From the NCBI GenBank assembly GCA_033763455.1, contig JANRKO010000028.1, forward strand, positions 128,001-192,000: a stretch of DNA of 64,000 nucleotides, given 5' to 3'. Both the position numbers and the translations under genes were made by a program. Below, in pieces: positions 821 through 22,921 of this stretch (positions are counted from its first letter, which is position 1; every line of letters begins with the position of its first letter). This stretch comes from Polyangiaceae bacterium. Its GTDB lineage: Bacteria > Myxococcota_A > Polyangia > Polyangiales > Polyangiaceae. Under the pieces are notes generated by a model, which was given only the letters and a program-made list of their open reading frames with translations, had not been told where the DNA came from and searched no databases.

Positions 821-2257
821 TTAAGCATGCGACGTGCCAATTGCTCGAAGGCGTACGGCGGGCAAAGCATGCCTATCTTCTGGCGCGCTTCGAGGCACCG
901 AGCGTGGGCTTTCCCCTCCAACAAGTGTAGAAGAATGCCCCGTCGGACTGTGCGCTGAGGCACCATAGACAGGTGGCATATGCGCCTCGTAAAGCAACCG
1001 TTCGTGCCGGCACCACCACCCCGCCCCGTCATTTTCGGGCAGCCGACCGTCCGCAAGCTCTCGAACAAGGGAAGCGACATCGGTTTCGACGGGGACTCCG
1101 CCCTCCAGTCGCAAGACTCCCGGTTCGTACTTTCCGCCGTCCTCGGTTACCAGCTTGTTCCAGCCGAAAGAGCCGAGGAGCGCCCAGGCTGTCACGGCTC
1201 TAATGTCTAAGCCTCGCGCTTGCGCCGCCAGGCAAGAGCGCCACACGTACGCCAACCAACTCGCTTGCTCGCTTGGGCTGCAGGCTAGATGTGCTTCCGT
1301 GATCGCCATGGGTAGCCCGAAGCGATCGGCGGCGGACTCTAGCAATTGCAACGGACCCATGAGGCCAACCGCACACACGCGTACGGCCTCCACATCCACA
1401 TACGCGTGCCGCGCATTTCCGCCTACCATCTCGGGTGGGTAAAGGTGCAGGCGATTATCCAGGAAGCGTTCGCTCGTCACATAGTAGTTGAACCCGATAA
1501 CATTCGGTATACAGGGGTCATCTAGAAAGTAACCCAAGTCCGCATCGGTGGCGCCATTTTTCCTCAAGTAAGCGTTAAGCGGGTGGTGCCGGTCCACTTT
1601 GCCACATAGAAGATCTAAGCTTAGCCAACGCCGCCGATTTTCGAATTCTGCTTGATAGGCAAGCTCGTCCACGCTAGTACACACAGCTAGATCCTCAGTT
1701 TGGATGAGCTCCGCGTGAGGGATGGAGCGGCGAATGGCACGCATGGCGAGCACGGTGCCGCGGCACTGAATTAATAGAGCTCGAACGAAAGCCGCATCAC
1801 TCCGCGCGTGGGGGTACCAATGGCCGTAAAGGCCGGTAAAGCGAGCTGTGGTAAGGGGTTCGTTGATCGGTGTGAACTTGGTGAGCCAAGGATAGCGCTC
1901 GGCCACCCTGCCGGCGTACGCTGCCAGGAGCTCGGGGAACGCTGGATCGAGGAGGGACGTATGCGGCGGGCCGCTACCATGGTGAACAAGCCCCACAATG
2001 GGTTCGATGCCCAGTGCGTACAGCCTCGCGAGGCGTTCATCGGCCCACGCGAAATCGAGTTCCCTTCCTCGCGCGGCGCGTTCCCAAAGGATCGGGTAGC
2101 GAAGGGTTCGTAGCCCTAGCTCGTAGAAACGGTCGAGGTCAGAAATGCGCTCCGCGTGACCACTGTATTCGAGTTGATCGAAGTAACGATCGCCGACGCG
2201 ATTGACGGTGCATTCAAGCCCCCCCCATAGCGCGAGCGATGCGGGATGTGGATCCAC
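821..2257 (-). CDS. family 1 glycoside hydrolase (beta-glucosidase-like)
   Basis: WGGLECTVNR N-terminus, LVHHGSGP, acid/base INEP and nucleophile AITEAH motifs; typical neighbour of glf. Confidence 0.85.
   Translation of the reverse strand: MDPHPASLALWGGLECTVNRVGDRYFDQLEYSGHAERISDLDRFYELGLRTLRYPILWERAARGRELDFAWADERLARLYALGIEPIVGLVHHGSGPPHTSLLDPAFPELLAAYAGRVAERYPWLTKFTPINEPLTTARFTGLYGHWYPHARSDAAFVRALLIQCRGTVLAMRAIRRSIPHAELIQTEDLAVCTSVDELAYQAEFENRRRWLSLDLLCGKVDRHHPLNAYLRKNGATDADLGYFLDDPCIPNVIGFNYYVTSERFLDNRLHLYPPEMVGGNARHAYVDVEAVRVCAVGLMGPLQLLESAADRFGLPMAITEAHLACSPSEQASWLAYVWRSCLAAQARGLDIRAVTAWALLGSFGWNKLVTEDGGKYEPGVLRLEGGVPVETDVASLVRELADGRLPENDGAGWWCRHERLLYEAHMPPVYGASAHSPTGHSSTLVGGESPRSVPRSAPEDRHALPAVRLRAIGTSHA
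824..839 (-). promoter_or_regulatory. sigma54 -24/-12 promoter TGGCACG-TCGC-ATGCT
   Basis: GG-N10-GC consensus inside the last codons of the GH1 gene, pointing at ORF 134..655. Confidence 0.55.
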
Positions 2258-3371
2258 TAAATACCTCCTTCGTGCGGGTTGGGGTTCCGGCTTCTTGGAT
2301 GCCAGCGTACAGAGTGAGTGCCTGCGCCACGACCTGGTCCATGTTGTAATATCTGTAGGTAGCGAGGCGTCCGACGAAGTGCACCGGGCTTCGATCGGCT
2401 AGCTCCTTGTATTTTTCATACAGCGCTGCGTTTTCCGGCATTGGAACGGGGTAATAGGGGTCGCCTTCGGCACGCGGGTACTCGTAGACTATGCTCGTCT
2501 TGGCATGAACTTGGCCAGTGAGATGCTTGAACTCGGTGATACGTGTGTAGGCGTTTTCGTTTGGATAGTTCACCGTTCCCACCGCTTGGAACTGAGCGGC
2601 ATGGTGAGTGACGTGGCGAAATTCGAGCGAGCGGTAGGGGAGCTTGCCGAACCGGTAGTCAAAAAAGGCGTCGACCGGGCCCGTGTAGACCATCTCCCGA
2701 TGCGGAATCTCATTCACGACTTCCCGGTAGTCGGTATTGAGCATCACCTTGATGTTCGGATGCCGAAGCATGTTCTCGAACATCCGCGTGTAGCCAAAGA
2801 GCGGCATGGCCTGATAGGTATCCGTGAAATAGCGGTCATCTCGATTCGTACGAACCGGAATGCGTGCTGCCACTGACGCGTCGAGCTCAGAAGCCTCCAG
2901 GCCCCATTGCTTCCGCGTATAGCCACGAAAGAACTTTTCGTAGAGCTCGCGGCCAACCTTGGAAACCACAACATCCTCAGACGTCTTCGCGCTTCGCTTC
3001 TCGCGGACGCTCTCGAAGAATTGCTCAAGCTCGTCCGGGTTGAGCTGGGTACCGCGTAGTTGATTGATGGTATTTAGGTTGATGGGTATAGGAACGAGCT
3101 GGCCATCTACTTGAGCTAGCACCCGATGCTGGTAATCCCGCCACTCAGTGAAACGGGAAAGGTAGCTGAATACGTCCGCCGAATTCGTGTGAAAGATGTG
3201 AGGCCCGTATTTGTGAACCAGGATGCCGTGGTCGTCGTAGTGATCGTAGGCATTGCCAGCCACATGCGGGCGCTTATCAACAATCAGCACCCTTTTGTTT
3301 AAGTCTGAAGCGAGCCGCTCTGCCAGAACGCTGCCTGCAAAGCCGGCGCCGACCACCAAGTAATCGAACAC
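2214..3371 (-). CDS. glf: UDP-galactopyranose mutase
   Basis: VVGAGFAGS FAD motif, HKYGPHIFHT, GDPYYP, GRLATYRYYNMDQ signature motifs. Confidence 0.97.
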   Translation of the reverse strand: MFDYLVVGAGFAGSVLAERLASDLNKRVLIVDKRPHVAGNAYDHYDDHGILVHKYGPHIFHTNSADVFSYLSRFTEWRDYQHRVLAQVDGQLVPIPINLNTINQLRGTQLNPDELEQFFESVREKRSAKTSEDVVVSKVGRELYEKFFRGYTRKQWGLEASELDASVAARIPVRTNRDDRYFTDTYQAMPLFGYTRMFENMLRHPNIKVMLNTDYREVVNEIPHREMVYTGPVDAFFDYRFGKLPYRSLEFRHVTHHAAQFQAVGTVNYPNENAYTRITEFKHLTGQVHAKTSIVYEYPRAEGDPYYPVPMPENAALYEKYKELADRSPVHFVGRLATYRYYNMDQVVAQALTLYAGIQEAGTPTRTKEVFSGSTSRIARAMGGA

Positions 3372-4522
3372 TAGCGTGCACCCGCAGCGAGCGGCAGCTC
3401 CACAGCCTTTTGCGAAATTCTTTTAACGCCGTGGCGTTTCAGAATCGCCTCCTTGATGCATTCGGACATTTGCCCCCAGGTGATATCCCACGAGAGCGTG
3501 GCCAGGTACGGATCTGCCTTGCGCAGGAGCACAGCATTTGGCTCACGCATGGCGTGCTCGCAGGCCAGCACGAAGTCCTTCACCGTGTCCGCGATACTGA
3601 CGAGGCCTTGAGCCTTGTAGGGGCGCACCACATCTTTTATGGAAGTCGATACAACAGGCCTGCCGGCGGCCAGGTATTCCGGCGTCTTGGTGGGGCTGAT
3701 GTACTTCGTGGACTCATTTTTGGCGAAGGGCATCAACGCAACATCCCAACCGCTAATGTAGCGAGGGAGCTCTGCATAAGACTTGCTGCCCAGGTAGTGG
3801 ATGTTGCCTAAAGCCGGTAGCTCGGCTTCGGAAATTTTCACGACAGGCCCCACCATGACCAATTGCCAATCCGGGCGAGCTTCTGCCACCCCTCGAACCA
3901 GCGCCAAATCCATCCGTTCGTCGATCACGCCGAAAAACCCCAAACGCGGCCGCGGGATGCAACGCATATCTTCCGGATCTTCCTGCGGAACGCGCGCCGT
4001 AGCGAAATGCGCTACGTCCACACTGCTCGGAAACGCATGAACGTTTGGATGTTGGGTTCTTTTCGCCTCGTAGAGCGACCAGCCTCCGGTAAAAACAACA
4101 TCTGCACGCGCCATGAGCTCAGCCTCTCGCTCCACGAGTTCGGGTGGCGCTCCTTTGAAGGCTGAAAGCTGATCCATGCAATCATAAATGGTAGCGATTG
4201 GGGAAAGGCACGTGCCAATTCCGAGCGCCATGGGCGTATAATACCACAGCAGGTAATCTTCCAGGTTGTAGGTTCGAACCAGCTCCAGAAGAAGCTTCCG
4301 CTGAATAGCTTCTGGATCTGCCGCGTTGCGTTCAATGTGAGGCACCGCAACGAACACGCCTTCTCGGCTGCGCGCTACGCGAAGCTCGCTCGACCCTTCG
4401 ATAAAGATCGGCTCTTCCACGAAGAACACTCTTCGAGTTTTCGCACAGCGGCTCAGCAGGTGCTGGGGGCGTTGAAACACAAAGTCCCAACGCAGGTGCG
4501 ACAGACAGATCAAGTCGTGCAT
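3371..4522 (-). CDS. GT-B (family 1/GT4-like) glycosyltransferase of the glf-linked type
   Basis: SHLRWDFVFQRPQHL N-terminus, YDCMD, SPTKTPEYLAAGRPVVST; stop overlaps glf start. Confidence 0.9.
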   Translation of the reverse strand: MHDLICLSHLRWDFVFQRPQHLLSRCAKTRRVFFVEEPIFIEGSSELRVARSREGVFVAVPHIERNAADPEAIQRKLLLELVRTYNLEDYLLWYYTPMALGIGTCLSPIATIYDCMDQLSAFKGAPPELVEREAELMARADVVFTGGWSLYEAKRTQHPNVHAFPSSVDVAHFATARVPQEDPEDMRCIPRPRLGFFGVIDERMDLALVRGVAEARPDWQLVMVGPVVKISEAELPALGNIHYLGSKSYAELPRYISGWDVALMPFAKNESTKYISPTKTPEYLAAGRPVVSTSIKDVVRPYKAQGLVSIADTVKDFVLACEHAMREPNAVLLRKADPYLATLSWDITWGQMSECIKEAILKRHGVKRISQKAVELPLAAGAR

Positions 4523-4573
4523 GGATGTGTCCTTTTTGAGGGGGTGAAAAACACTAGGCGCGAAACGCTCCTA

Positions 4574-4589
4574 AGCAGATTCCGTGCCG
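4574..4589 (-). promoter_or_regulatory. sigma54 promoter CGGCACG-GAAT-CTGCT for GT-glf-GH1 operon
   Basis: GG-N10-GC consensus ~50 bp upstream of the start codon. Confidence 0.7.
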
Positions 4590-4686
4590 AGTGTGCGTTC
4601 CCCGGGAGTTGAAAGGGCTGATGCCAATTCTCAGTTTTCGCGCACGCTGGGGCTTTTTGAAGGGGCGGGAACCCACCCGGTAAATC

Positions 4687-4711
4687 AGCCACAGCGTGGC
4701 AAAGTGTCACA
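4687..4711. promoter_or_regulatory. putative enhancer (UAS) AGCCACA-G-CGTGGCA-AAG-TGTCACA
   Basis: Island motif lying ~100 bp from each of two divergent sigma54 promoters. Confidence 0.6.
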
Positions 4712-4812: not shown

Positions 4813-4828
4813 TGGTACGCCGTGTGCA
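4813..4828 (+). promoter_or_regulatory. sigma54 promoter TGGTACG-CCGT-GTGCA for GH2 operon
   Basis: GG-N10-GC, near consensus, upstream of GH2. Confidence 0.55.
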
Positions 4829-4888: not shown

Positions 4889-6769
4889 TTGCCACGAAGA
4901 CACTTCCAGCAGATCGGCCTAACGGACGCAAAGCCCCAAACGGGCAGCGAAACTGAGGTAGATCCCATGGGCTATCCGCGTCCCCAACTGCGGCGGAGCG
5001 AGTGGTTCACCTTGAACGGGCAGTGGCAGTTCGCCATGGACCCAGAAGGTGTCTTTACTGCGCCACACGAGGTCGCCTGGGATGGGACGATAAAGGTCCC
5101 GTTTGCGCCGGAAACCATCCAAAGCGGAGTAGGCTTCAACGGACTGTTTCGCGGCTGCTGGTATCGCCGCAAGTTTTTGGCTCCGGAGCTTTTAGACGGT
5201 CAGCGCCTCATCTTACACTTTGAAGCGGTCGATTATAGGGCCACGGTCTGGGTGGATGGATCTTTAGCGGTGCAACACGAAGGCGGCTATACGCCTTTTC
5301 AAGCTGACATTACAGCGTTGCTAACGTTCACAGGGGAACACGAAGTGGTGGTCTTTGCCGATGATGACCCGGCGGATTTGGCCAAGCCTCGCGGTAAGCA
5401 AGATTGGCAGCTCGAGCCGCACGCGATTTGGTACCAAAGAACGACCGGCATTTGGCAAACGGTGTGGCTTGAGCGGGTGCCTGCCACTCACATCCAGAGC
5501 TTGCAGTGGACTGCCAACTTGGAGCGCTGGGAAATTGCGGTGGACGCCACCATCTACGGAAAAGGTAGCGAAACGCGCTTTGTTAGCGTCAAGCTTTGGG
5601 TGGATGATTTAGTATTAGCTCAAGACCAATACACCGTTGTGGCCGGAGAGGTGCACCGCCGCATTACGCTTTCCGACCCAGGAATCGATGACTTTCGGAA
5701 CGAGCTCTTGTGGAGCCCTGAGAGCCCCAAGCTGATTGAGGCAGTGGTGGATTTGCTTGATGATGCGGGTAGAATCATCGATTCGGTGCGCAGCTATACG
5801 GCACTGCGCACCTTCTCCGTGCACGGTGATCGCTTTCTTTTAAATGGGCGTCCTTTTCAACTCCGTATGGTCCTGGATCAGGGCTATTGGCAGGGCTCCG
5901 GCCTCACCCCTCCGAACGATGCGGCCCTGCGCAAAGACATAAGGCTCGCCAAAGCCATGGGCTTTAATGGAGTGCGTAAGCATCAAAAGATCGAAGTGGC
6001 GCGCTACCTATATTGGGCCGATAGGATGGGTCTTTTGGTTTGGGAGGAAATGCCGAGCGCTTATCGGTTCACCAAGGGCTCCGTAGAGCGCCTGACGCAA
6101 CAGTGGCTAGAGGTGCTGAAGCGAGACATGAGCCACCCGTGTGTCATGGCCTGGGTGCCGTTCAACGAATCTTGGGGCGTGCCCAACCTGCCCAACAGCC
6201 TGCCAGAACGCAACTATGTGCGGGCGCTATATTATCTCACCAAGACGCAAGATCCCTCCCGCCCTGTGGTGGGCAATGACGGCTGGGAGAGTGTGGCAAC
6301 AGATATCATTGGTATTCATGACTACGATGATCGGCCAGAGCGTTTGGCGCGACGCTATCAGGTGCGCGATGTGCTACCGCAGCTTCTGAAGCGGGCGCGG
6401 CCGGGAGGTAGGAGCTTGGTCTTGGAGGGCCATTCCCGACGCGAGCATCCCATCGTTCTTTCGGAATTTGGTGGCATTGCGTTGAGTGATGATCGCGAGC
6501 ACACCTGGGGTTATTCCCGCACGGATACGCCTGCCAAGTTCGCTGAACAGTTTTCGGCTTTATTGGAAGTAGTGCGATCCTTGGAGGCGTTAGCGGGCTA
6601 CTGCTACACCCAATTCGCCGACACCTTTCAAGAGACGAACGGGCTACTGCATGCTGATCGTAGCCCCAAAATTCCCATCGAGCAGGTGGCTTGGGCAAAC
6701 CGAGGCGCACATGCCCGCGATGTTTCACCGTCGCCCATTGTGCTCGGTATCAACGACGACGACGGATAG
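4889..6769 (+). CDS. glycoside hydrolase family 2 (true start may be ATG 4967)
   Basis: YPRPQ..LNGQWQF, LHFEAVDY, HEGGYTPF, GIWQTVWLE, LDQGYW, RKHQK, WVPFNESW (acid/base), VLSEFGG (nucleophile). Confidence 0.92.
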   Translation: MPRRHFQQIGLTDAKPQTGSETEVDPMGYPRPQLRRSEWFTLNGQWQFAMDPEGVFTAPHEVAWDGTIKVPFAPETIQSGVGFNGLFRGCWYRRKFLAPELLDGQRLILHFEAVDYRATVWVDGSLAVQHEGGYTPFQADITALLTFTGEHEVVVFADDDPADLAKPRGKQDWQLEPHAIWYQRTTGIWQTVWLERVPATHIQSLQWTANLERWEIAVDATIYGKGSETRFVSVKLWVDDLVLAQDQYTVVAGEVHRRITLSDPGIDDFRNELLWSPESPKLIEAVVDLLDDAGRIIDSVRSYTALRTFSVHGDRFLLNGRPFQLRMVLDQGYWQGSGLTPPNDAALRKDIRLAKAMGFNGVRKHQKIEVARYLYWADRMGLLVWEEMPSAYRFTKGSVERLTQQWLEVLKRDMSHPCVMAWVPFNESWGVPNLPNSLPERNYVRALYYLTKTQDPSRPVVGNDGWESVATDIIGIHDYDDRPERLARRYQVRDVLPQLLKRARPGGRSLVLEGHSRREHPIVLSEFGGIALSDDREHTWGYSRTDTPAKFAEQFSALLEVVRSLEALAGYCYTQFADTFQETNGLLHADRSPKIPIEQVAWANRGAHARDVSPSPIVLGINDDDG

Positions 6770-6778
6770 GAGCTAACG

Positions 6779-8077
6779 ATGTCATTTGCCATGTTTTCAC
6801 CCACGGCGGGGGAGCCCGAGGTCACGCCGTTGCCTCTAGGACGCTACCGAAAATCTGAGGCCTTACTGCGCAAAGCTCAGCGCTTGATCCCGGGTGGGCA
6901 CCACCTCTCCGGGCGGCCGTTGCTCACCCCGGAGACTTCGCCCATGTACATGGAGCGTGGCGAGGGCTGTCGGGTGTGGGATGTCGACGGGCACGAGTAC
7001 CTCGATTACATCGGCGCCTACGGTCCGTGTCTGTTGGGTTATGCGCACCCCGTGGTTGATGCGGCTGCAATTCGACAAATTAGGAACGGTGCGCTTTTAT
7101 CGCTGAATCATCCGCTCCACGTAGCGTTTGCCGAGCGGCTCACCGAACTGTTAACTGGCGGGGAAATGGCCGCCTTCTTCAAAACGGGGTCAGAAGCCAC
7201 CACGGCCGCGCTGCGCGTAGCACGCCGTGCGACGGGACGACGCAAAGTAGTGCGCTGCGGTTACCATGGGTGGCACGATTGGTGTCTGCCCGGAGAGCCA
7301 TTTGTGCCGGAGATGGGGGAGCAGGTGCTGAGTTTCGATCCGAGGCGTAGTGCTTCTTTGTCTGAGATCCTGCAGCAACATCCGCATGAGGTTGCGGCTG
7401 TCATCGTCGCGCCTGAGATGATCTTGCCGACAAGCCAGGCCGTATTTGCTCAACTCGTAGAGGCGACGCATCGGGCAGGCGCCGTATTTATCCTCGATGA
7501 AGTGAAAACGGGCCTCCGGATCCGGCCTGGGTTCTTCCAACAGTACGTTGGAATCGTGCCGGACTTAACGACTCTCAGTAAGGCGCTGGGCAACGGGTGG
7601 CCCGTAGCAGCACTTGTGGGTTCGCGCGCCATCATGGAGCATGGCGCTGGGCTGCATATTTCGGCGACGTACCACGGGGAAACGGCCGGTATAGCTGCCG
7701 CCCTGGCAACGCTCGACATCGTGCAACAAGAAGACGTGTGTGGTCACGTTTGGAGGCTCGGGGAAATGCTCATCGACGGCCTCAACCATCTGGCTGTGTT
7801 CCATGGCATTCCGGCAAAGGCTTATGGTGAGCCATTGCCGCCCATGCCCTTTTTGCGGTTCAGCGTTCGAGATCCGGAGCTCACTCAGGCCCTTGAGAAC
7901 ACGTTCTATTCGGAGCTTTATGTGGCCGGGATCCTGTTTCACCCGCGGCACTTGTGGTTCATCAGCTATGCGCATCGAATGGGTGACATTGAACGCACCC
8001 TCGAGGCTGCCGATAAAGCCCTCAGGGTTACCGCTGAACGGCACGGTGCAGAGCTCGCAAGGGGGCTTTCTCCCTGA
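6779..8077 (+). CDS. class III PLP aminotransferase (glutamate-1-semialdehyde aminomutase-like)
   Basis: GEGCRVWDVDGHEYLD, FKTGSEA, GYHGWHD, FILDEVKTG, TLSKALGNG PLP-lysine motif. Confidence 0.9.
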   Translation: MSFAMFSPTAGEPEVTPLPLGRYRKSEALLRKAQRLIPGGHHLSGRPLLTPETSPMYMERGEGCRVWDVDGHEYLDYIGAYGPCLLGYAHPVVDAAAIRQIRNGALLSLNHPLHVAFAERLTELLTGGEMAAFFKTGSEATTAALRVARRATGRRKVVRCGYHGWHDWCLPGEPFVPEMGEQVLSFDPRRSASLSEILQQHPHEVAAVIVAPEMILPTSQAVFAQLVEATHRAGAVFILDEVKTGLRIRPGFFQQYVGIVPDLTTLSKALGNGWPVAALVGSRAIMEHGAGLHISATYHGETAGIAAALATLDIVQQEDVCGHVWRLGEMLIDGLNHLAVFHGIPAKAYGEPLPPMPFLRFSVRDPELTQALENTFYSELYVAGILFHPRHLWFISYAHRMGDIERTLEAADKALRVTAERHGAELARGLSP

Positions 8078-8160: not shown

Positions 8161-8895
8161 TTACGGGCGAGAAGAAGTGCTGGCAGGAGTATTCTTCGTC
8201 CCGCTGTTGGCGTGGTGCTCCGGCGCATCCGTGCCCATAATTTTATCCTTCAGCTCGGTCAGTATTGGCTTGGTCACTCGCACGTTGTTGCGGACGTCCT
8301 TCACTCCCTGAACGCTTTCGGCGATGTCCTCGGCCTGATGCTTCATGCTACGTGTTTGCACGGTTCCCTCTAGGATCACTTCACCAGCTTCAACGCGCAC
8401 TTCGATCTCGCTAGCGTCCACCCCGTCGTCTTGGCTGAGCCTATCACACACATCCTCGCGAATGCGGTCATCGGTCCGAGTGTATCCCTTAGGGCCGCGG
8501 CCGGAGAAAGAACTTCGGTCCCCTGTGCTGCTCAGCCCACCGTAGCTACGAGCGCGTGCGCCAGTAGAGGTTCCCGAACCGTAGCCGCCGCTAGATCCAG
8601 AAGTTACCCCATAATTGCCTGCGCCGTAGTTCTCGCGAGTTCCAAGGCTGCCGTACCCAGCTCCATAGCTGCCTGGAAAGCGCTGTCTGCTTGCGCCCCC
8701 TTCGCTCTCCCAATTGCGGTCTTGCTGATCGCGGTTCAGGGGATCTCGATCCCGGCCCGGTTGGCTGCCTCCGAGCCCTCCATCTTGATCTTGCCAGGGG
8801 CGATCTTGATCTTGCCAGGGGCGATCGCGGTCGTTGCGATCCTGATGTTCGAAGTCGTTTCTATTGCGTTCTTCTCGTCCGAATTTGTTGTTCAT
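8161..8895 (-). CDS. BON-domain protein with disordered hydrophilic N-terminus
   Basis: GRGPKGYTRTDDRIREDVCDRL...VDASEIEVRVEAGEVILEG BON signature; ATG 8895 lies downstream of the sigma54 site. Confidence 0.88.
   Translation of the reverse strand: MNNKFGREERNRNDFEHQDRNDRDRPWQDQDRPWQDQDGGLGGSQPGRDRDPLNRDQQDRNWESEGGASRQRFPGSYGAGYGSLGTRENYGAGNYGVTSGSSGGYGSGTSTGARARSYGGLSSTGDRSSFSGRGPKGYTRTDDRIREDVCDRLSQDDGVDASEIEVRVEAGEVILEGTVQTRSMKHQAEDIAESVQGVKDVRNNVRVTKPILTELKDKIMGTDAPEHHANSGTKNTPASTSSRP
8782..8826. repeat. 21-bp tandem duplication encoding DRPWQDQ x2
   Basis: ATCTTGATCTTGCCAGGGGCG repeated exactly twice. Confidence 0.9.
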
Positions 8896-8982: not shown

Positions 8983-8998
8983 AGCAAACATCGTGCCC
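8983..8998 (-). promoter_or_regulatory. sigma54 promoter GGGCACG-ATGT-TTGCT
   Basis: Near-perfect -24/-12 consensus upstream of the BON gene. Confidence 0.75.
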
Positions 8999-9105
8999 CA
9001 CGCGTGACGACCATCCATCAAGAGACAACTCGTAATTCCTGCCGCCGCGGGCTAGCTACAACGGTGGCATCATGAGGACGTGCTGCAAGTCTGCTTCACC
9101 ACGAG

Positions 9106-9131
9106 TGCCTCAAGTGTGGCGGATTGCACAG
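9106..9131. promoter_or_regulatory. putative enhancer TGCCTCA-AG-TGTGGCG-GAT-TGCACAG
   Basis: 108 bp upstream of the -24 box; 9100-9128 matches 16809-16837 at 23/29 positions. Confidence 0.65.
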
Positions 9132-9812: not shown

Positions 9813-9837
9813 GTTGAAAATCCTTATCCATCTTGCA

Positions 9838-10227: not shown

Positions 10228-10255
10228 GGTTGGATCCTTTCGGCAAAAGAGCATT

Positions 10256-10593: not shown

Positions 10594-10609
10594 AGCAAGG
10601 AGCGCGCCA
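10594..10609 (-). promoter_or_regulatory. sigma54 promoter TGGCGCG-CTCC-TTGCT
   Basis: Consensus match upstream of the GlsB-BON-DUF3341 operon; island motif CGTGGCA-AAG-CGCACCA at 10713-10729. Confidence 0.7.
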
Positions 10610-10772: not shown

Positions 10773-10788
10773 CGGCACGCGCTGTGCA
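10773..10788 (+). promoter_or_regulatory. sigma54 promoter CGGCACG-CGCT-GTGCA
   Basis: GG-N10-GC match upstream of GTG 10858. Confidence 0.55.
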
Positions 10789-10857
10789 CCGACTCGAAGC
10801 TATGGAAAAATCGGAATTACGCATTCCCCCTATCGGGGCGCGGTTGGGAGGCGAGGC

Positions 10858-15101: not shown

Positions 15102-16661
15102 CTACTGATGCAAGATCCTCCACAGGCGCCCAGCTTTGTCGTCGCTCACATAGAGCGACCCATCTGGCCCCTCACCAACACCGACGGGCCGGTACATCGC
15201 CTGCTCCGGAAGCGGCCGGTTCGGTCCCGCAAAGCCATCTGCGAACATTTCGGCGGCAATCCCTGGTTGCCCATTGGTGAACGGCAGGAACATAACGCTG
15301 TAGCCGGGGAGGGCGCCGGGGGGATTGGGAGTGAACCGGGAGCCGTGAAACGCTACGAGTAGGCCGCCCTGATAGCGAGCAGGGAATTGATCACCCGTGT
15401 AGAAATGCATCCCCAAAGGCGCAAGGTGAGCCGGGAAGGCGAACTTAGGAAGGGGCACCGCACCGCAGCGTCCGGCATCCACGCCGTTTCCGCCATACTC
15501 CGGTGCCAACACGTTGCCACGGCCGCCGTCGTGATAGCAGTAGGGCCATCCATAGTCAGCGCCGTTCGCAATGAGGTACAGGGCTTCCGACGGTAGATTC
15601 TGATCTTGCGTGGCGGAAAAGAGGCCAGGCCAATTTTCATTTAATTGGTCCCGTCCATTTTGCACACCCCAGAGTTCGCTCGTGCCAGGCCTAATGGCGA
15701 GTGCGGTGGTATTTCTTAAACCGCTACCGTAGCGCAAACCGTCAGTTTGGATCTGCCCGAGCAAGCCCGGTTCGAAACGCCACACACCCGCTCGCGTGAG
15801 CAGCTCGGGGCAGGGGTCGATGCCGGGGGAGAGCAACGTGCGGTTCTGAAGCTGGCAAGAATTCGTGGCGGAACCAATATTCACAAATAGTCGCGCATCA
15901 GGGCCAAAAACGATCGATTTTGACGCATGATCGCCCGTGCCCGGCAACCCCGAAACAACCACTTCAGGGGCACTAGAAGGGGTCAGCACACCATTGGGGA
16001 GTGCCCAGCGAACTACCCGGGTATTTTCAGCGAAGTAAAGGTACCCGTCTCGCCATTCGATGCCATTTCCGCCCTCGTTACCGAACGTCTGCCGCTGATC
16101 GAGCTTTCCGTTCCCGGTGGTGTCGCGAAGAGCCACGACTTTTCCTTTGGTAATCCCGTCCGTCGAATTGTTGATCGCCACAAATACGTCACCGCTCGGA
16201 GCGATGGCAAAATGCCTCGCTGGGCCAAGATTGTCTGCCACAGCGAGGGCACAGAATCCCGGAGGCAACGTTAATCCGCCATTGTCAGCGTCACAGGCAA
16301 CTTGCACCGGTGCGCCCCCTGCGCCACCACTCCCACCTGCCATGCCGGCACTTCCTGCCATGCCAGCGCTTCCTGCAACGCCCCCCTGCCCGGCGCTTCC
16401 ACCTAAGCTATTGCTACCTCCGATGGTGGGGGTTCCAGCTGCGCCAGCGGCTGCTCCAGCTGCGCCGCCTGCGGGATTTGCCTTTCCTCCGCTGCCAGGA
16501 GTGCCGCCCGTGGCTTTGCCGCCGGTCCCACCGGTCCTCCCGCCCGTGGTACCAGTGCCGGGCCCTGGATCGTCCGTGTCATCGCTGCAAGCAATTGGAA
16601 CGGCGAGAAGAAGCAAAGGCAACAGGGAAACCTTGAGTAACTGCGAACGAGAGTATGACAT
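15102..16661 (-). CDS. sorbosone/glucose dehydrogenase-family beta-propeller lipoprotein with Gly-rich linker
   Basis: PIAC lipobox; GGLTLPPGFCA, GSATNSCQ, GLRNT, DYGWPYCY, AHLAPLGMHFY, AFHGS, GPDGSLYVSDD. Confidence 0.87.
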   Translation of the reverse strand: MSYSRSQLLKVSLLPLLLLAVPIACSDDTDDPGPGTGTTGGRTGGTGGKATGGTPGSGGKANPAGGAAGAAAGAAGTPTIGGSNSLGGSAGQGGVAGSAGMAGSAGMAGGSGGAGGAPVQVACDADNGGLTLPPGFCALAVADNLGPARHFAIAPSGDVFVAINNSTDGITKGKVVALRDTTGNGKLDQRQTFGNEGGNGIEWRDGYLYFAENTRVVRWALPNGVLTPSSAPEVVVSGLPGTGDHASKSIVFGPDARLFVNIGSATNSCQLQNRTLLSPGIDPCPELLTRAGVWRFEPGLLGQIQTDGLRYGSGLRNTTALAIRPGTSELWGVQNGRDQLNENWPGLFSATQDQNLPSEALYLIANGADYGWPYCYHDGGRGNVLAPEYGGNGVDAGRCGAVPLPKFAFPAHLAPLGMHFYTGDQFPARYQGGLLVAFHGSRFTPNPPGALPGYSVMFLPFTNGQPGIAAEMFADGFAGPNRPLPEQAMYRPVGVGEGPDGSLYVSDDKAGRLWRILHQ

Positions 16662-16704: not shown

Positions 16705-16720
16705 TGCAACGAACGTGCCG
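16705..16720 (-). promoter_or_regulatory. sigma54 promoter CGGCACG-TTCG-TTGCA
   Basis: Near-perfect consensus 44 bp upstream of ATG 16661. Confidence 0.75.
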
Positions 16721-16814
16721 CCATTTCGAAACCATGTGTTGCTACAAGCACCTGAAAGCAACCGGAGCGTACGAAAGGCGCGCGAGGAAGATCCGCAAGA
16801 CGCTACATCACGAG

Positions 16815-16840
16815 TGCCACAGTTGTGGCAGGATGCATCC
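16815..16840. promoter_or_regulatory. putative enhancer TGCCACA-GT-TGTGGCA-GGA-TGCATCC
   Basis: Between two divergent sigma54 promoters; 23/29 identical to the 9100-9128 site. Confidence 0.65.
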
Positions 16841-16907: not shown

Positions 16908-16923
16908 TGGCACACGCCTTGCT
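16908..16923 (+). promoter_or_regulatory. sigma54 promoter TGGCACA-CGCC-TTGCT
   Basis: Near-perfect consensus upstream of a small lipoprotein gene. Confidence 0.75.
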
Positions 16924-16981: not shown

Positions 16982-17206
16982 ATGAAGATTGGATGGTATT
17001 TGGCAGTTCTTAGTCTATCTATGTGCGCTGCGTGTGGCGGAGGCCAGAAAGAGCCTGAAGATGCGGATGGTGCCGCTGAAAGGGCCGGCGAACGCATCGA
17101 TACCGCAGCGGAGAAGGCGGGCTCCGAAGCGGAGGAAGCCACCGAAGATGTTGGCGAAGCGGTGGAAGATGCAGGTGATGATATTCAGGAAAAATCTAAC
17201 GAGTAA
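16982..17206 (+). CDS. small acidic lipoprotein (LEA/CsbD-like amphipathic repeats)
   Basis: AGGAG upstream, CAAC lipobox, 11-residue-periodic E/A/D-rich body. Confidence 0.8.
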   Translation: MKIGWYLAVLSLSMCAACGGGQKEPEDADGAAERAGERIDTAAEKAGSEAEEATEDVGEAVEDAGDDIQEKSNE

Positions 17207-17250
17207 ATCCGCAAAGGTTAAAAGTCCAAAGAGTAAATCCGCAAAGGTTA
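17201..17250. repeat. 20-bp direct repeat x2, 30-bp period
   Basis: GAGTAAATCCGCAAAGGTTA at 17201-17220 and 17231-17250. Confidence 0.9.
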
Positions 17251-17313
17251 GAAGATTTGCAGACGCTCGTAGTGGGTGACCTGCGGAGACTTGGTATTTA
17301 GAAAGGTTCTACT

Positions 17314-17613
17314 ATGATTCAGCGAGTAATTGCGTTGTCGTTCTTGTTTTGTGCGGTCTCTCTTGGGTGCAGCGACGATCCCGTTGAGCAGATAACGAAC
17401 AAGATAACGTGCAGAGATGTGTGTGGGCGCTATAAGGATTGTATCGACTCCAACTACAATGTGGATATGTGCGTGAGCAAATGTGAGGCGGATGCTTCCG
17501 CGGAAGAGGCCAAGGAGCAGAAGCTCAACACGTGTGAAACCTGCTTGGATGACAAGTCCTGCACGGATTCGGTATTCAAGTGTGGAGTCGAATGTACGGG
17601 TGTGGTGCCGTAA
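17314..17613 (+). CDS. small Cys-rich lipoprotein
   Basis: SLGC lipobox followed by CxxxC/CxxC pairs; GAAAGG upstream. Confidence 0.8.
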   Translation: MIQRVIALSFLFCAVSLGCSDDPVEQITNKITCRDVCGRYKDCIDSNYNVDMCVSKCEADASAEEAKEQKLNTCETCLDDKSCTDSVFKCGVECTGVVP

Positions 17614-17672
17614 GCTTGCCTTCTTGCCATCGACCCAAGGCGGTCGCTTCACAGGGGGGTGTGATTCGTTGA

Positions 17673-17698
17673 GCCACCCCGGGCAAACCCGGGGTGGC
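17673..17698. terminator. perfect 11-bp hairpin
   Basis: GCCACCCCGGG-CAAA-CCCGGGGTGGC downstream of the lipoprotein genes. Confidence 0.6.
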
Positions 17699-17714
17699 AT
17701 TAGATGAGATCTCG

Positions 17715-17731
17715 GGTGGCAAATTGCCCCG
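17715..17731. promoter_or_regulatory. island motif GGTGGCA-AAT-TGCCCCG upstream of acnA
   Basis: Palindromic consensus match ~70 bp before ATG 17800. Confidence 0.55.
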
Positions 17732-17799
17732 CGGAAGAGTGCTTTCGGATTCTGACCTAGCCTGGCCGTTGTGCTCGTGGGATTTTGCTTCAACCGACA

Positions 17800-20487
17800 A
17801 TGACCATATCTTCCCACGACTCGTTTTCGACGTTCCGACAACTGCAGGTGCCGGCTGGCACCCGCGGCTACTTCAGCTTACCAGCGCTTGCTGAAAGTGT
17901 GCGGGTGGATCTCGCACGCCTCCCATACTGTCTTCGCGTTTTGCTTGAGAACTTGCTCCGATGCGAGGATGGAAAATCCGTGACGCGTCAAGATATTCTG
18001 GCGCTCGCGGCCTGGGAACCGCAGGGCAACGCCCATGGTGAGATCGCCTTTCACCCGGCACGCGTGGTGCTTCAGGATTTTACGGGCGTCCCCGTAATCG
18101 TAGATCTTGCAGCGTTGCGTGATGCCATGGCGGAAATGGGTGGGGATCCCTCAAAGATCAACCCGCTGTTTCCGCTTGAGCTAGTGATCGATCACTCAGT
18201 GCAAGTTGATTCCTACGGCAGCTTAGATTCTCTATTGGTAAATACACGCAAGGAGTACGAACGGAACACCGAGCGTTATACGTTGTTGCGCTGGGCGCAG
18301 AATGCCTTCAACAACCTGAAGGTGGTGCCCCCGCAAACAGGTATTGTGCACCAGGTGAACTTGGAGCATTTGGCGCGGGTAGTCTTTGACTCTGAGGGCC
18401 TGCTCTACCCGGACACACTGGTCGGCACGGACAGCCATACCACCATGATCAACGGGCTTGGCGTGCTGGGGTGGGGTGTCGGCGGTATTGAAGCGGAGGC
18501 TGCCATGCTTGGGCAGCCCATCAGCATATTGATTCCGGAAGTTGTGGGGTTTCGTTTGCGTGGCAAGTTACCGCCGGGTAGTACCGCTACGGACCTCGTG
18601 CTGACCATTACGCGTCTGTTGCGCGATGTGGGTGTGGTGGAAAAGTTTGTCGAATTCTTTGGCGAAGGCCTGGATGATTTGCCGCTCGCGGATCGCGCTA
18701 CGATTAGTAACATGAGCCCAGAATTCGGCTCAACTTGCGCCATTTTTCCGATTGATGAGCAGACGCTCCGCTACCTTCGCCTTACCGGAAGAACGGATGA
18801 AGAGGTGGCGGTTATTGAGGCGTACACGCGCGCGCAAGGCTTCTTCCGAACCGCAGATGCTGTGGAGCCTGTATTCACGCAGGTGCTTGAGCTCGATCTT
18901 GGCACTGTCGTTCCTAGCTTAGCGGGTCCGCGGCGGCCGGAAGATAAAGTGGCTTTGAGTGCCGCCAAAGCAACTTGGGAGTCAGAGCTTGCTACGCTCA
19001 TCTCCAGCGCTCGCGCTGAACCAGCCGCCGTCGCTTTTGTTAACGCATCCAACCAAACCTTTGCGTTGAGTCACGGCAGCATCGTAATAGCCGCCATCAC
19101 ATCCTGCACCAATACGTCCAATCCTGCCGTCATGATGGCAGCCGGCCTCTTAGCACGAAATGCTCGTGCACACGGCCTAGAAGTAAAACCCTGGGTGAAG
19201 ACAAGCTTGGCGCCCGGCTCGAAGGTGGTAACCCGTTACCTAGAAGATGCCGGCGTGCTTCAAGATCTGGAGGCTTTGCGGTTTAACGTGGTGGGGTACG
19301 GCTGTACTACGTGTATTGGAAATAGTGGCCCTCTAGACGCACCGATTTCAGAAGCCGTGAACGCTCACAATCTTGTGGTGGTAAGCGTGCTCAGCGGGAA
19401 CCGCAATTTTGAAGGTCGCATCAGCCCTGATGTGCGCGCTAATTTCCTTGCGAGCCCTCCTTTGGTAGTGGCCTACGCCTTGGTGGGTCGGATGGACGTG
19501 GACCTGTTGACGGAGCCGTTGGGAGTGGATAGGAGTGGCAATAACGTCTTCCTGAGGGACATTTGGCCGTCGCCAGAGGAGGTGCAACGAGCAGTTCAGG
19601 CCCACGTGCAGGTCAGCCTGTACCGGGAGGAATATGCGAGTGTCTTTGAAGGAGATGCGGTCTGGAAAGCTCTGCCGGTTCCTCGCGAGCGCCTTTTCGC
19701 GTGGGATGCGGGGAGCACCTACGTGAGGCGTCCGAGTTTTCTGGAAGGCATTCCTCGTGAGCCTGCACCACTTGATGACATCCGGGGCGCGCGCGTTCTC
19801 GCCAAGCTCGGGGACTCGGTAACCACCGATCATATCTCCCCAGCCGGGAATATCTCCAAGGCATCGCCCGCGGGCGCTTACCTGCAAATGCATGGCGTGA
19901 AAGTTGCGGACTTTAATTCCTACGGTGCTCGTCGAGGCAACCACGAGGTCATGGTGCGCGGCACGTTTGCCAACGTGCGGCTGCGAAATCAGCTAGCCCC
20001 TGGAACGGAGGGCGGCCTCACTCGTCTCCTTCCTGACGGAGGCATCACATCACTCTTCGACGCCGCAGAGGCCTATCAAGCCAGCGGAACGCCCCTCTTG
20101 GTCCTGGCCGGCAAAGATTACGGCACCGGCTCGTCGCGCGATTGGGCGGCCAAAGGTACACGGCTTTTGGGGGTGAAAGCTGTCCTCGCAGAATCCTTCG
20201 AGCGCATTCACCGCAGCAACTTGATCGGCATGGGGGTCTTGCCTCTGCAATTTTTGCCCGGCCAGAGTGCTTTTACGCTAGGCCTCTCCGGTGAGGAGCG
20301 TTTCGATATTCAAGGCATCGCGAGTGCGCTTAGCCTCTCCAAGCTGCTGGATGTCGCCGCAACGGCCTCCGATGGACAGGTAAAACATTTTCGGGTCGTG
20401 TGTCGCATCGATACGCTGGTGGAGCTGGACTACTACTCGCATGGCGGCATTTTGCCCTTCGTTTTGCGCCAACTGCTGAGGGCGTGA
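17800..20487 (+). CDS. acnA: aconitate hydratase A
   Basis: QDFTGVP, DHSVQVD, GTDSHT, AITSCTNTSNP, GYGCTTCIGNSG, TTDHISP, GSSRDWAAKG. Confidence 0.97.
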   Translation: MTISSHDSFSTFRQLQVPAGTRGYFSLPALAESVRVDLARLPYCLRVLLENLLRCEDGKSVTRQDILALAAWEPQGNAHGEIAFHPARVVLQDFTGVPVIVDLAALRDAMAEMGGDPSKINPLFPLELVIDHSVQVDSYGSLDSLLVNTRKEYERNTERYTLLRWAQNAFNNLKVVPPQTGIVHQVNLEHLARVVFDSEGLLYPDTLVGTDSHTTMINGLGVLGWGVGGIEAEAAMLGQPISILIPEVVGFRLRGKLPPGSTATDLVLTITRLLRDVGVVEKFVEFFGEGLDDLPLADRATISNMSPEFGSTCAIFPIDEQTLRYLRLTGRTDEEVAVIEAYTRAQGFFRTADAVEPVFTQVLELDLGTVVPSLAGPRRPEDKVALSAAKATWESELATLISSARAEPAAVAFVNASNQTFALSHGSIVIAAITSCTNTSNPAVMMAAGLLARNARAHGLEVKPWVKTSLAPGSKVVTRYLEDAGVLQDLEALRFNVVGYGCTTCIGNSGPLDAPISEAVNAHNLVVVSVLSGNRNFEGRISPDVRANFLASPPLVVAYALVGRMDVDLLTEPLGVDRSGNNVFLRDIWPSPEEVQRAVQAHVQVSLYREEYASVFEGDAVWKALPVPRERLFAWDAGSTYVRRPSFLEGIPREPAPLDDIRGARVLAKLGDSVTTDHISPAGNISKASPAGAYLQMHGVKVADFNSYGARRGNHEVMVRGTFANVRLRNQLAPGTEGGLTRLLPDGGITSLFDAAEAYQASGTPLLVLAGKDYGTGSSRDWAAKGTRLLGVKAVLAESFERIHRSNLIGMGVLPLQFLPGQSAFTLGLSGEERFDIQGIASALSLSKLLDVAATASDGQVKHFRVVCRIDTLVELDYYSHGGILPFVLRQLLRA

Positions 20488-20557: not shown

Positions 20558-20710
20558 CTAAAGCGATGTCCGCCGACCGGTAATCAAGTTGATCAGCACC
20601 ACCACAATCGCCACTACCAATAACAGGTGAACGAACCCACCCATGGTATAGGAAGTGACCAGCCCGAGTGCCCAGAGCACCAACAGAATAACAGCAATTG
20701 TCCACAACAT
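20558..20710 (-). CDS. 50-aa lmo0937-family (DUF5670-like) membrane protein, absent from the ORF track
   Basis: Manual translation MLWTIAVILLVLWALGLVTSYTMGGFVHLLLVVAIVVVLINLITGRRTSL*; AAGGA SD; own sigma54 promoter. Confidence 0.9.
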   Translation of the reverse strand: MLWTIAVILLVLWALGLVTSYTMGGFVHLLLVVAIVVVLINLITGRRTSL

Positions 20711-20781: not shown

Positions 20782-20797
20782 AGCAAGCATCGTGCCG
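20782..20797 (-). promoter_or_regulatory. sigma54 promoter CGGCACG-ATGC-TTGCT
   Basis: Near-perfect consensus upstream of the small membrane protein gene. Confidence 0.75.
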
Positions 20798-20897: not shown

Positions 20898-20923
20898 CGG
20901 CGCAACTTGCCCCACGTGTGGCA
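20898..20923. promoter_or_regulatory. putative enhancer CGGCGCA-ACT-TGCCCCA-CG-TGTGGCA
   Basis: Island motif 100-125 bp upstream of the -24 box. Confidence 0.6.
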
Positions 20924-20953
20924 ATTCACACCGTTCTTCGATTCTCTTTTTGG

Positions 20954-22606
20954 TCAAGCTATCTGAGGCACAGCCGCGAGAACTTCTAGCAACTGATGCG
21001 CATCCACTGGCTTCACCAGATGCGCCTCAAATCCGGCCGCAGCGCTCCTTGCTTTGTCGCTCGTTTGACCGTAGCCGGTAAGCGCGACCATTCGGCAGCC
21101 GGTACAGCTTGGGAGTGCGTGGAGCTTTTTCGCAAGCGTGTAGCCGTCCATGACGGGCAAACCTATGTCGAGTACCGCGAACTCCGGTCGAAATTCACCA
21201 GCGAGTTCGAGAGCCGCGAGTGGTTCTGTGGCGACCGCGACCTCGTGACCAAAAGAGCGCAAAATGTCCCCAAGCACTTCGGCCGCGTCGACGTTGTCGT
21301 CAACCACGAGGATTCGCTTCGAAATACCAGGCTGGGAGCGTGCCACCTCTGCCCTAGGGATTTGAGAACTGGTAGAGCCCGCGCGAGCAGGTAGACGAAC
21401 CCGAAATTCACTACCCAGACCCAGGCCAGCACTCACTGCACTCACGCTGCCCCCATGAAGCTGAACTAGATTCTTAACGAGAGCTAGGCCAACGCCCAGG
21501 CCCCCTCCTGGTCGCCCTTGGCCGCGAGGTGCCTGCGCAAACATGTCGAAGATGTTCGGAAGAATATCGGGCGCGATGCCTATGCCGTCGTCCTTTACGC
21601 AGAGCACGATCTCATCTTTCTCTCGAAACGCGGAGAGCTCGATGTGGCCGCCTGGGTGCGTATAGCGTGCGGCGTTGGTTAACAGATTAGCGACAACTTG
21701 GGATATTCGCACGGCATCCACGCGAACCCGTAGCCCTGTCCGCGGGACGTGCACTAAAAGCGTACTGCCTCGATTTTCTAGCAGAAAGCTAGCCATCTCG
21801 ATCGCTTCGGCGACCACCGTCCCAAGCTCCACCCATTCTTTACGGAGCTGGACTTTGCCGCGGGTGATTTTGGAGACATCCAAAAGGTCGTCTACCAGGC
21901 GCACCAGGTGCGTCACATGCCGTTCGATAAGCGCAAGCTCACGAGTGAGCTTGCCAGAATTTCGGAGCTTCACGAGTCCAATCGCCGTCACGATTGGAGA
22001 AAGTGGGTTGCGGAGCTCGTGACCCAACATAGCAAAGAATTCGTCCTTCGCGTTGTTGGCGGCCTCAAGGTCGCGGAGCAATCGCTCTCGTTCTGAGTAA
22101 GAGCGCTCCACAACGTGTCGGGCGCTTGCGGGGTCACTGATTTCGAGGCCGGCGATCATCAGCCCACTCACTACCCCCTCCTGCTGGATGGGCTCGACGT
22201 TGAAGCAAAATAGCGCCTCTTGGGGCTGGCCCTCTCCCGTGCGGGTCAAACTCATCCGGAATTCTGAAGTCGAAAAAGGATTCCCCGTTCGATACACCTC
22301 GCTCAATATCCCAACAAATTCACTGCCTTCCAATTCAGGAAACACTGCCGAAAAAGGCTTGCCAACAATGTCTCTCCTTCCAGCGATCTGGCAGTACCGC
22401 TCATTGGCTAACTCAAACGTGAGGTTATCTCCAGATAGCACCGCCACCGCGAATGGTGCTCTGTGCAGCAGGCGGTCGAGCGCATCGGCACGAGTGCTAT
22501 CCGTTGGAGGCGATGAGCTTGACGATGGTTTGGCGGGCACGGAAGTAAGATGAGACGATTTGGAAGCAACGTTCAAGGTTTTCTCAGGCTCAATGTCATG
22601 GGGCAA
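20954..22606 (-). CDS. hybrid sensor histidine kinase (PAS-HisKA-HATPase-REC); start uncertain
   Basis: FFAMLGHELRNPL, NLLTNAARY, DDGIGI, GGLGVGL, receiver VVDDNVD/VLDIGLP/KP. Confidence 0.92.
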   Translation of the reverse strand: MPHDIEPEKTLNVASKSSHLTSVPAKPSSSSSPPTDSTRADALDRLLHRAPFAVAVLSGDNLTFELANERYCQIAGRRDIVGKPFSAVFPELEGSEFVGILSEVYRTGNPFSTSEFRMSLTRTGEGQPQEALFCFNVEPIQQEGVVSGLMIAGLEISDPASARHVVERSYSERERLLRDLEAANNAKDEFFAMLGHELRNPLSPIVTAIGLVKLRNSGKLTRELALIERHVTHLVRLVDDLLDVSKITRGKVQLRKEWVELGTVVAEAIEMASFLLENRGSTLLVHVPRTGLRVRVDAVRISQVVANLLTNAARYTHPGGHIELSAFREKDEIVLCVKDDGIGIAPDILPNIFDMFAQAPRGQGRPGGGLGVGLALVKNLVQLHGGSVSAVSAGLGLGSEFRVRLPARAGSTSSQIPRAEVARSQPGISKRILVVDDNVDAAEVLGDILRSFGHEVAVATEPLAALELAGEFRPEFAVLDIGLPVMDGYTLAKKLHALPSCTGCRMVALTGYGQTSDKARSAAAGFEAHLVKPVDAHQLLEVLAAVPQIA

Positions 22607-22711: not shown

Positions 22712-22727
22712 TGCAATTGCCGGACCA
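22712..22727 (-). promoter_or_regulatory. possible sigma54 promoter TGGTCCG-GCAA-TTGCA
   Basis: GG-N10-GC with perfect -12 box, upstream of the kinase. Confidence 0.5.
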
Positions 22728-22769
22728 GCCATGAAGTGTCGCGCACTTGGCGCTTTGCCGGCGTCACCT

Positions 22770-22870
22770 CAGGCAGCGCGTGCACAAGGTGGATGCAGCA
22801 GCGAACGCAAAGTCCAAGCAGAGTGAGCGCGAGGTGGATGCAGCAGCGAACGCATGTCCAGGCAGCGCGT
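22770..22870. repeat. ~45-bp degenerate tandem repeat with exact 23-bp core
   Basis: AGGTGGATGCAGCAGCGAACGCA at 22787 and 22832; CAGGCAGCGCGT at 22770 and 22859. Confidence 0.85.
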
Positions 22871-22905
22871 TTGCAAGATCCCGGTGGCGCGTAGTCAAGC
22901 GGGCT

Positions 22906-22921
22906 TGGCATGAGGGGTGCA
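22906..22921 (+). promoter_or_regulatory. possible sigma54 promoter TGGCATG-AGGG-GTGCA
   Basis: GG-N10-GC match upstream of the holin-like gene pair. Confidence 0.5.

Follow-up and report, generated by a model that had tools for sequence, protein, structure and literature searches.

A likely sigma-54-read general-stress regulon in a ~55-kb gene cluster of a Polyangiaceae genome

The first 23.7 kb of a 64,000-nucleotide (nt) stretch from the genome of an uncultured Polyangiaceae bacterium (GCA_033763455.1, here G000; 6.56 Mb, 93.7% complete), referred to as the window (G000:C28:128001-192000), belong to a cluster of stress-related genes rich in the GG-N10-GC signature of sigma-54 promoters, the -24/-12 box. 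The cluster is likely a general-stress regulon, predicted to be read by sigma-54 polymerase and to be switched by one or more NtrC-type activators, not by a stress sigma factor. Positions without a contig name are those of the window, and the coordinate of a box is the lowest plus-strand base of its 16-mer. Leader counts are approximate because genes were called by a purpose-made hexamer-model caller; a leader is the sequence ahead of a gene where the gap measures 50 nt or more. Boxes were scored with a matrix whose training set was confined to leaders outside C28:100,000-151,700, and they were considered strong at 12 bits or more, and a fixed-consensus test required a match at at least six of eight positions of GG-N10-GC with TGGCAC/TTGC context.

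All 12 of the 16-mers listed in an earlier sequence-only reading of the window were found at their coordinates and on their strands, and each aims, as that reading had it, at a gene 15-172 nt away, most of the start codons lying 44-88 nt beyond the box. Nine of the 12 scored 14.6-18.1 bits on the outside-trained matrix, and the weak ones were 22906+ (10.3 bits), 4813+ (9.0) and 22712- (3.5). The statement that most transcription units here have such a box held for 11 of the 14 leaders in window 1-23.7 kb; it failed for the kinase gene at 12079, the lipoprotein-like gene at 17314 and acnA, which have none of their own. The fixed consensus matched those 11 of 14 leaders, 20 of 24 when the stretch was extended 14 kb to the left, and 263 of the 3494 leaders elsewhere; shuffled leaders matched at a rate of 3.3%, and with the spacer shifted by one or two bases only 0-2 of the 24 leaders matched. 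Antisense matches occurred in 11 of the 24 leaders of the extended stretch, a poor control because divergent pairs have leaders in common.

A matrix scan of site density against background upheld the enrichment, with strong boxes in 17 of 31 leaders in C28:94,000-151,700 versus 159 of 3487 elsewhere (Fisher p = 5e-15, for borders picked after the data had been viewed). When the labels were shuffled 1000 times, no run of 31 leaders included more than 10 boxed ones. The cluster is the densest of the genome, with 10 boxes per 25 kb versus at most five on other contigs, and -24/-12 boxes occur in it at ~12 times the genome-wide rate. The extent of ~23 kb first assigned to it was too short: the cluster covers ~55 kb, about C28:94,000-151,700, reaching ~30 kb to the left of the window. 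The word island, in the mobile sense, was not supported either, since the GC content of the cluster is 56-60% versus 59.3% for the genome, the only tRNA gene of the contig lies at C28:174,059, 22 kb from the cluster, and no integrase was found among the scanned cluster genes (two genes crossing locus borders were left out of the scan). Gene order differs among the congeners; the cluster is plastic, and a mobile element is not demonstrated. For the intergenic regions of the remaining 41 kb of the window no box had been noted, which is nearly so: the intergenic site 40179+ scores 16.1 bits and is the sole box among the 23 non-cluster leaders there. This isolated box (40179-40194, plus strand) is located in the gap that precedes a dnaA-like gene, ~250 nt ahead of a gene for a 311-aa outer-membrane-like protein.

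The gene content of the cluster fits a general stress response. KatE, CsbD, OsmY/BON, YflT, GlsB, YtxH, YqjE, Ku/LigD and AcnA are cargo of RpoS, SigB and EcfG regulons. Family scans supported the general-stress cargo proposed for the window, giving two BON-domain proteins, YflT, GlsB, a PA2171-family protein, lmo0937, a YqjE-like protein and AcnA. To the left of the window the cluster continues with TamA/TamB, a zinc peptidase, KatE, CsbD, YihY, DUF1003, a truncated LigD, Gfo/Idh, DUF4398-OmpA, YtxH and more kinases. Boxes are found before cytoplasmic cargo as well, namely catalase, the PA2171-like protein, CsbD and Gfo/Idh. The ligD open reading frame (G000:C28:110605-112341) starts with the first 12 residues of Ku, fused in frame to LigD from residue 272 onward (numbering of the G001 protein); the fusion reflects a deletion in which ku was largely lost together with the beginning of ligD. 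A second ku-ligD pair, without a box, lies at C33:67363-70936.

The genome contains rpoN, as a sigma-54 programme would require, with an intact RpoN box, as well as 29 strong matches to sigma-54 activators. A 17.5-bit -24/-12 box just upstream of rpoN (G000:C19:14861-16393) suggests that this gene is autoregulated. No protein reached the family cut-off for RpoS (best 297 bits versus 378.7) or for SigB/F/G (best 137 bits versus 234) in this 93.7% complete genome. Three PhyR-sigma2 matches were obtained; the two that were scanned are extracytoplasmic function (ECF) sigma factors under the EcfG-related cut-offs, and neither of these two of the three is a PhyR fusion. One ECF factor (G000:C78:5180-5701), whose best matches are EcfG-related families, again under cut-off, is preceded at 22 nt by a 19-bit sigma-54 box, and a cascade from sigma-54 to this factor is possible.

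These factors bear on a different explanation, in which stress expression comes mainly from a sigma-70-family factor (a group 2 RpoD-like or an ECF factor), leaving the sigma-54 boxes a secondary or repressive role. Two extra RpoD-like factors, 48 sigma-70 region-2 matches in the genome and the box before the EcfG-like factor at C78:5180 would suit it; the spacing of 44-88 nt between the boxes and most start codons, together with a candidate activator site as far from the box as is typical, speaks against it, as does the lack of an excess of housekeeping sites (5 versus 6.7 in shuffles, in a scan that excludes alternative factors). We regard it as very improbable.

A candidate operator was sought upstream of the boxes. 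Unbiased k-mer and dyad enrichment yielded nothing beyond p = 8e-6 among 62,427 patterns; a palindrome, GCCHC-N3/4-GDGGC, was spotted by eye in the enrichment output and then checked on held-out sets, with a matrix trained on the three congeners (G001, G002 and G003) alone and with strong boxes masked during training. At 12 bits or more it occurred in 6 of the 17 boxed cluster promoters of G000 (two of which share a site), 13 of the 159 other boxed leaders and 4 of 500 unboxed leaders, and six of the eight intergenic sites in the genome that combine palindrome and box lie in the cluster or at the activator locus described next. Within the window the palindrome occurs in four promoter regions, 75-110 nt upstream of five strong boxes. 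The csbD, PA2171-like and glsB promoters of G000 are without it.

The palindrome also marks an NtrC-type activator gene on another contig (G000:C33:2409-3776), which encodes receiver (REC), AAA+ (sigma-54 interaction) and Fis-type helix-turn-helix domains and has DUF4398-OmpA, CBS, BON and Hsp20 genes as neighbours. The protein is 80% identical in all three congeners, and its G001 orthologue lies inside the cluster of that genome. In four of four genomes the gene has its own box and palindrome, which suggests positive autoregulation. It shares the REC-AAA+-Fis layout of AtoC, NtrC and ZraR, its best NCBIfam matches, and yet falls under all their cut-offs and into a separate Myxococcota clade in a quick tree. 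Boxed promoters beside genes of this clade had the palindrome in 10 of 25 cases (8 of 23 once the training locus is set aside, 6 of 19 once the genus is), versus 0 of 20 beside generic NtrC genes, a control set of 80 loci at 37-50% identity from the activator search that also served as the entry to other phyla. Tail-to-tail half-sites were present in 14 of 24 promoters beside the clade, 0 of 19 beside generic genes and 9 of 1505 unboxed leaders.

The activator locus has several further features. The adjoining gene (G000:C33:3788-4579) encodes a sensor-less kinase-like protein with HisKA at the Pfam cut-off, no HATPase match and ATP-box motifs that look degenerate; a 40% identical homologue lies near the G001 activator, and a PDB sequence search gave a best match of only E = 0.025. 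This protein could be a phosphotransfer or phosphatase protein. The left contig end (C33:1-650) is a repeat with copies on more than 25 contigs (73-100% identity); this is probably a mobile element, and one that interrupted the assembly beside the locus. Away from this locus, in two closed 10-Mb genomes (G604 and G649; loci L448 and L449), a boxed PA2171-like gene with the palindrome lies beside a divergent operon that resembles glgE-treS-glgB by size and N-terminus.

Sigma-54 polymerase waits at its promoters as a closed complex. Opening of these promoters requires an upstream-bound, ATP-driven activator (PMC12754779). In the mechanism proposed here, sigma-54 polymerase would be poised in this form at the boxes of the cluster until a signal of stress or stationary phase, for which the several PAS/GAF hybrid kinases in or near the cluster are the probable sensors, leads to phosphorylation of the activator's receiver domain; the link from kinase to activator is drawn from neighbourhood alone. 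The activator would then bind the palindrome, open the promoters with ATP and raise its own expression, and promoters without the palindrome (here csbD, the PA2171-like gene and glsB) would depend on a second activator or on weaker sites.

The signal could instead be narrower, with the regulon serving one specific cue, such as oxygen shortage or the formation of spores or resting cells, as do those of NmpR, PexR and Nla28 in Myxococcus xanthus. Narrow sigma-54 regulons whose gene types overlap with those seen here are known for myxobacterial activators: the NmpR regulon includes hemerythrin, CBS and Usp genes (PMC11841059), and PexR controls the catalase gene katB (PMC12754779). The CBS, Hsp20 and BON genes adjoining the C33 activator and the PAS and GAF domains of the kinases are in keeping with such a role. 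The palindrome is, however, by inspection unlike the published sites (NmpR GCGCA-N5-TGCGC, PexR CACCG-n6-CGGTG and Nla28 CT(C/G)CG(C/G)AG; PMC11841059, PMC12754779, PMC9765219), and the functions of the cargo range over DNA repair, peroxide, envelope and translation, so that a single-cue regulon is judged improbable.

Conservation of the boxes was assessed in the three congeners, in a 200-genome sample of the phylum and in samples of other phyla centred on Anatilimnocola (planctomycetes), Geobacter and Halomonas (Gammaproteobacteria). In these counts, Myxococcota refers to genomes of the source's own phylum group. The counts omit the source genome itself, two contig-edge loci (L244 and L414), sub-cut-off csbD matches in the comparison with the outgroup phyla, and every locus from G522 and G652, two unpublished genomes that support none of the claims. 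Since the genomes are related to one another and each locus is a best match, the counts are descriptive and do not amount to independent trials.

Orthologues in the genus kept the motif upstream, and for csbD and the PA2171-like gene this conservation extended to other families. In the three congeners the same families cluster, with 3-13 strong boxes per stretch (10 of 15, 9 of 25, 5 of 12, 3 of 19 and 13 of 32 leaders). The glsB gene was boxed in all three congeners (18.7-19.5 bits), the BON-yflT operon in six of six loci from four genera, and the kinase gene at 20954 had no box in its own leader in any of six homologues. The phylum sample included csbD in 47 genomes; among the best 30 loci, a box was present within 250 nt in 13, representing 9 of 16 families, where shuffling expects 0.1 and wrong spacing gives 0-1. 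PA2171-like genes were boxed in 12 of 27 loci, from six of eight families of the order, and all controls gave zero. Random stretches gave baselines of 1 of 21, 2 of 12, 2 of 37 and 0 of 19 boxed leaders. A genome of a distant Myxococcota family (G087) has its own cluster of YflT-like, Usp, CsbD, PRC-barrel and BON genes, with 7 of 21 leaders boxed versus 1 of 21 at random.

Beyond the phylum, planctomycetes had a box before csbD at 12 of 23 loci, spread over 11 of 17 genomes, where random leaders from three genomes gave a baseline of 0 of 99. The corresponding csbD counts were 2 of 19 for the phylum of Geobacter and 0 of 17 for Gammaproteobacteria. One planctomycete cluster (L381, G317:C1:4006001-4026000) comprises two csbD genes and DUF1328, PRC-barrel, YqjE-like and AI-2E genes, with 3 of 19 leaders boxed, and its NtrC-type activator falls outside the myxobacterial clade in a quick tree. 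The proposal that this lineage runs a stress programme through sigma-54 was partly supported, by cargo, rpoN and boxes, and was too narrow in its scope, since planctomycetes share the pattern and sigma-54 boxes occur throughout the genome.

Sigma-54 boxes precede about 4.6% of leaders genome-wide (~160 of them outside the cluster), including those of flagellar-, pilin- and rpoN-like genes (labels from N-terminal sequences, except rpoN, which came from a family scan), and the cluster is thus the extreme of a widely used promoter class. An alternative is that myxobacteria employ sigma-54 broadly for envelope and accessory genes, and that the promoters, though genuine sigma-54 promoters, belong not to one stress programme but to a patchwork in which small regulons with different activators are merely adjacent. 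It would account for the 159 other boxed leaders, many of them before lipoprotein-like genes, the 29 activators, the presence of the palindrome on only about one third of the boxed cluster promoters and the varying gene order among congeners, and a comparative paper framed sigma-54 as the controller of the bacterial exterior (PMC3162934). The boxing of cytoplasmic cargo is at odds with it, as are the boxes before the same families in other families of the phylum and in planctomycetes, far above local baselines, and the concentration of palindrome-plus-box sites in the cluster or at the activator locus. We consider a patchwork unlikely, and somewhat less so than a single-cue regulon.

Several observations weigh against a sigma-54-read general-stress regulon under the C33 activator. 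With ~4.6% of all leaders boxed, some enrichment at envelope genes is expected, and the two extra RpoD-like, three RpoH-like and many ECF factors are possible co-regulators of the cargo genes. Boxes lay near DUF5670 genes in only 2 of 28 loci, or 4 of 28 allowing for operons, and near ku in 2 of 30; many DUF5670 and csbD genes sit in operons longer than the flank examined, and the ku set, which consists mostly of stand-alone ku genes and not of the cluster type, gives a background level and is no sign that the regulon fails. Among the 24 strong intergenic palindromes of G000, 16 had no box within 230 nt; the palindrome was found in 0 of 20 boxed promoters of csbD loci, which makes more than one activator likely, and was missing from 11 of 12 boxed PA2171-like promoters (present in one). 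Its half-site resembles the -24 element, and boxes were left unmasked in the counts for neighbours of the activator clade. A paralogous activator (C20:54519) has identical recognition-helix letters, and the loop of the C33 activator reads GAFTDA, not GAFTGA, with the central F and T retained, the two residues on which PMC3162934 lays stress.

Going through the window from its left end, the box at 824..839 (-) scores 16.8 bits, overlaps the last codons of a GH1-like open reading frame and aims at the gene 134..652 (-). The latter encodes a 172-aa protein of no known family with homologues at 34-42% identity in the G002 and G003 clusters, which are boxed too, and with one paralogue on C39; an Atlas search with this protein gave no usable match. 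The operon 821..4522 (-) encodes a glycosyltransferase (3371-4522), the UDP-galactopyranose mutase Glf (2214-3371) and the GH1-like protein (821-2257; a weak TIGR03356 match, far under cut-off), and its box at 4574..4589 (-; 17.1 bits) lies 52 nt ahead of the glycosyltransferase gene. The candidate activator site GCCAC-N3-GTGGC at 4684..4704 (15.0 bits) separates this box from the divergent weak box at 4813..4828 (+), which precedes genes for a GH2 glycoside hydrolase (4967-6769) and a class III aminotransferase (6779-8077; together 4967..8077, +). A BON-domain protein with a low-complexity N-terminus is encoded at 8161..8895 (-), with the box at 8983..8998 (-; 16.5 bits) ahead of it and, ~105 nt upstream of that box, a candidate activator site at 9103..9124 (17.5 bits). 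The operon 9243..10522 (-) consists of genes for GlsB/YeaQ (10256-10522), a BON protein with a signal-like N-terminus (9838-10227) and a YflT-domain protein (9243-9812), with a box at 10594..10609 (-; 16.3 bits).

The box at 10773..10788 (+; 14.6 bits) faces the gene 10804..11361 (+) for a DUF1440-like membrane protein, which is under the Pfam cut-off and has an uncertain start. The box at 11393..11408 (+; 16.2 bits) precedes the gene 11485..11931 (+) for a hemerythrin-fold protein of the PA2171 family (NF053874, 192.1 bits; cut-off 190), which is followed by the unboxed PAS/GAF hybrid histidine kinase gene with a receiver domain (12079..14982, +). A glucose/sorbosone dehydrogenase-family protein with a lipoprotein-like N-terminus (15102..16661, -) has a box at 16705..16720 (-; 15.2 bits), and the candidate activator site at 16812..16833 (13.6 bits) is common to this box (92 nt) and to the divergent one at 16908..16923 (+; 18.1 bits, 75 nt). 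The latter heads the stretch 16982..20487 (+), with lipoprotein-like genes at 16982-17206 and 17314-17613 and the aconitase gene acnA (end 20487); the second lipoprotein-like gene and acnA may be expressed by read-through from 16908+. The gene 20558..20710 (-) for an lmo0937/DUF5670 small membrane protein has a box at 20782..20797 (-; 15.3 bits) and, 108 nt upstream of the box, a candidate activator site at 20905..20926 (16.4 bits), next to a gene for a PAS hybrid histidine kinase with a receiver (20954..22606, -).

The right end of the cluster includes a divergent ytxH / yqjE-plus-partner unit that is present twice, in decayed form, at 22650-23680 and at G000:C28:125534-126301; the window copy retains no more of ytxH than a remnant and has a short duplication between its boxes, and the other copy is without yqjE. 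The weak box at 22712..22727 (-) corresponds in position to the ytxH box of the other copy and is trailed by the short ytxH remnant; it may therefore be vestigial. The box at 22906..22921 (+) has a counterpart of similar score (10.9 bits) ahead of the same gene pair in G001, and precedes 22936..23680 (+), which encodes a YqjE-like holin-X family protein (to 23331) and its 127-aa partner (23297-23680).

The cargo families of the cluster are those of the RpoS (Gammaproteobacteria), SigB (Bacillota) and EcfG-PhyR-NepR (Alphaproteobacteria) regulons; the difference is that here no RpoS or SigB rises above cut-off and the promoters are of the -24/-12 type and would need an ATP-driven activator. The stress cluster PA2134-PA2190 of Pseudomonas aeruginosa likewise groups katE, end-joining genes and a PA2171-family protein (PMC9262955, PMC13041383); PA2171 itself binds ribosomes and FtsZ and promotes persisters, and its regulator was left open in that paper (PMC13041383). 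Nla28, NmpR and PexR of M. xanthus likewise act on sigma-54 promoters with upstream activator sites at stress-related genes (PMC9765219, PMC11841059, PMC12754779), and Nla28 has been termed part of a starvation-induced general stress response (PMC9765219), but their binding sites differ and the accessible passages of those papers describe no CsbD/BON/YflT-type cluster. No paper was found on sigma-54 control of CsbD/BON-type general-stress clusters, in a search outside of which most subscription papers lay, and the text passages and 11 supplements of a sigma-54 regulon matrix survey (PMC12316311) make no mention of CsbD, OsmY or general stress, nor of any of six cargo COG numbers. In the available part of a planctomycete stress study, one sigma-54 promoter is proposed before a thioredoxin gene and a general stress cluster is named without a regulator (PMC2754498). 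The parts are all of known kinds, and the wiring appears to be undescribed.

A broader proposal is offered tentatively, as one that we think somewhat likelier to fail than to hold: that Myxococcota and Planctomycetota have a fourth general-stress architecture in which CsbD, BON/OsmY, YflT, KatE, PA2171-like and YqjE proteins would be wired to sigma-54, and that in this myxobacterial group a hybrid-kinase-fed, self-amplifying NtrC-type activator with the operator GCCHC-N3/4-GDGGC would be the master switch replacing RpoS, SigB or EcfG. In the general stress responses known so far, the switch is the synthesis or release of a dedicated sigma factor. If the proposal is true, the polymerase would instead be pre-bound and silent and would be opened by a phosphorylated ATPase, into which many kinases could feed. 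The analysis yields a concrete candidate activator and operator, and the promoter signature could reveal new stress genes among unannotated small proteins. Such a switch would explain how survival genes are controlled in myxobacteria and planctomycetes, which are common in soil and sediment and in which RpoS and SigB are not found.

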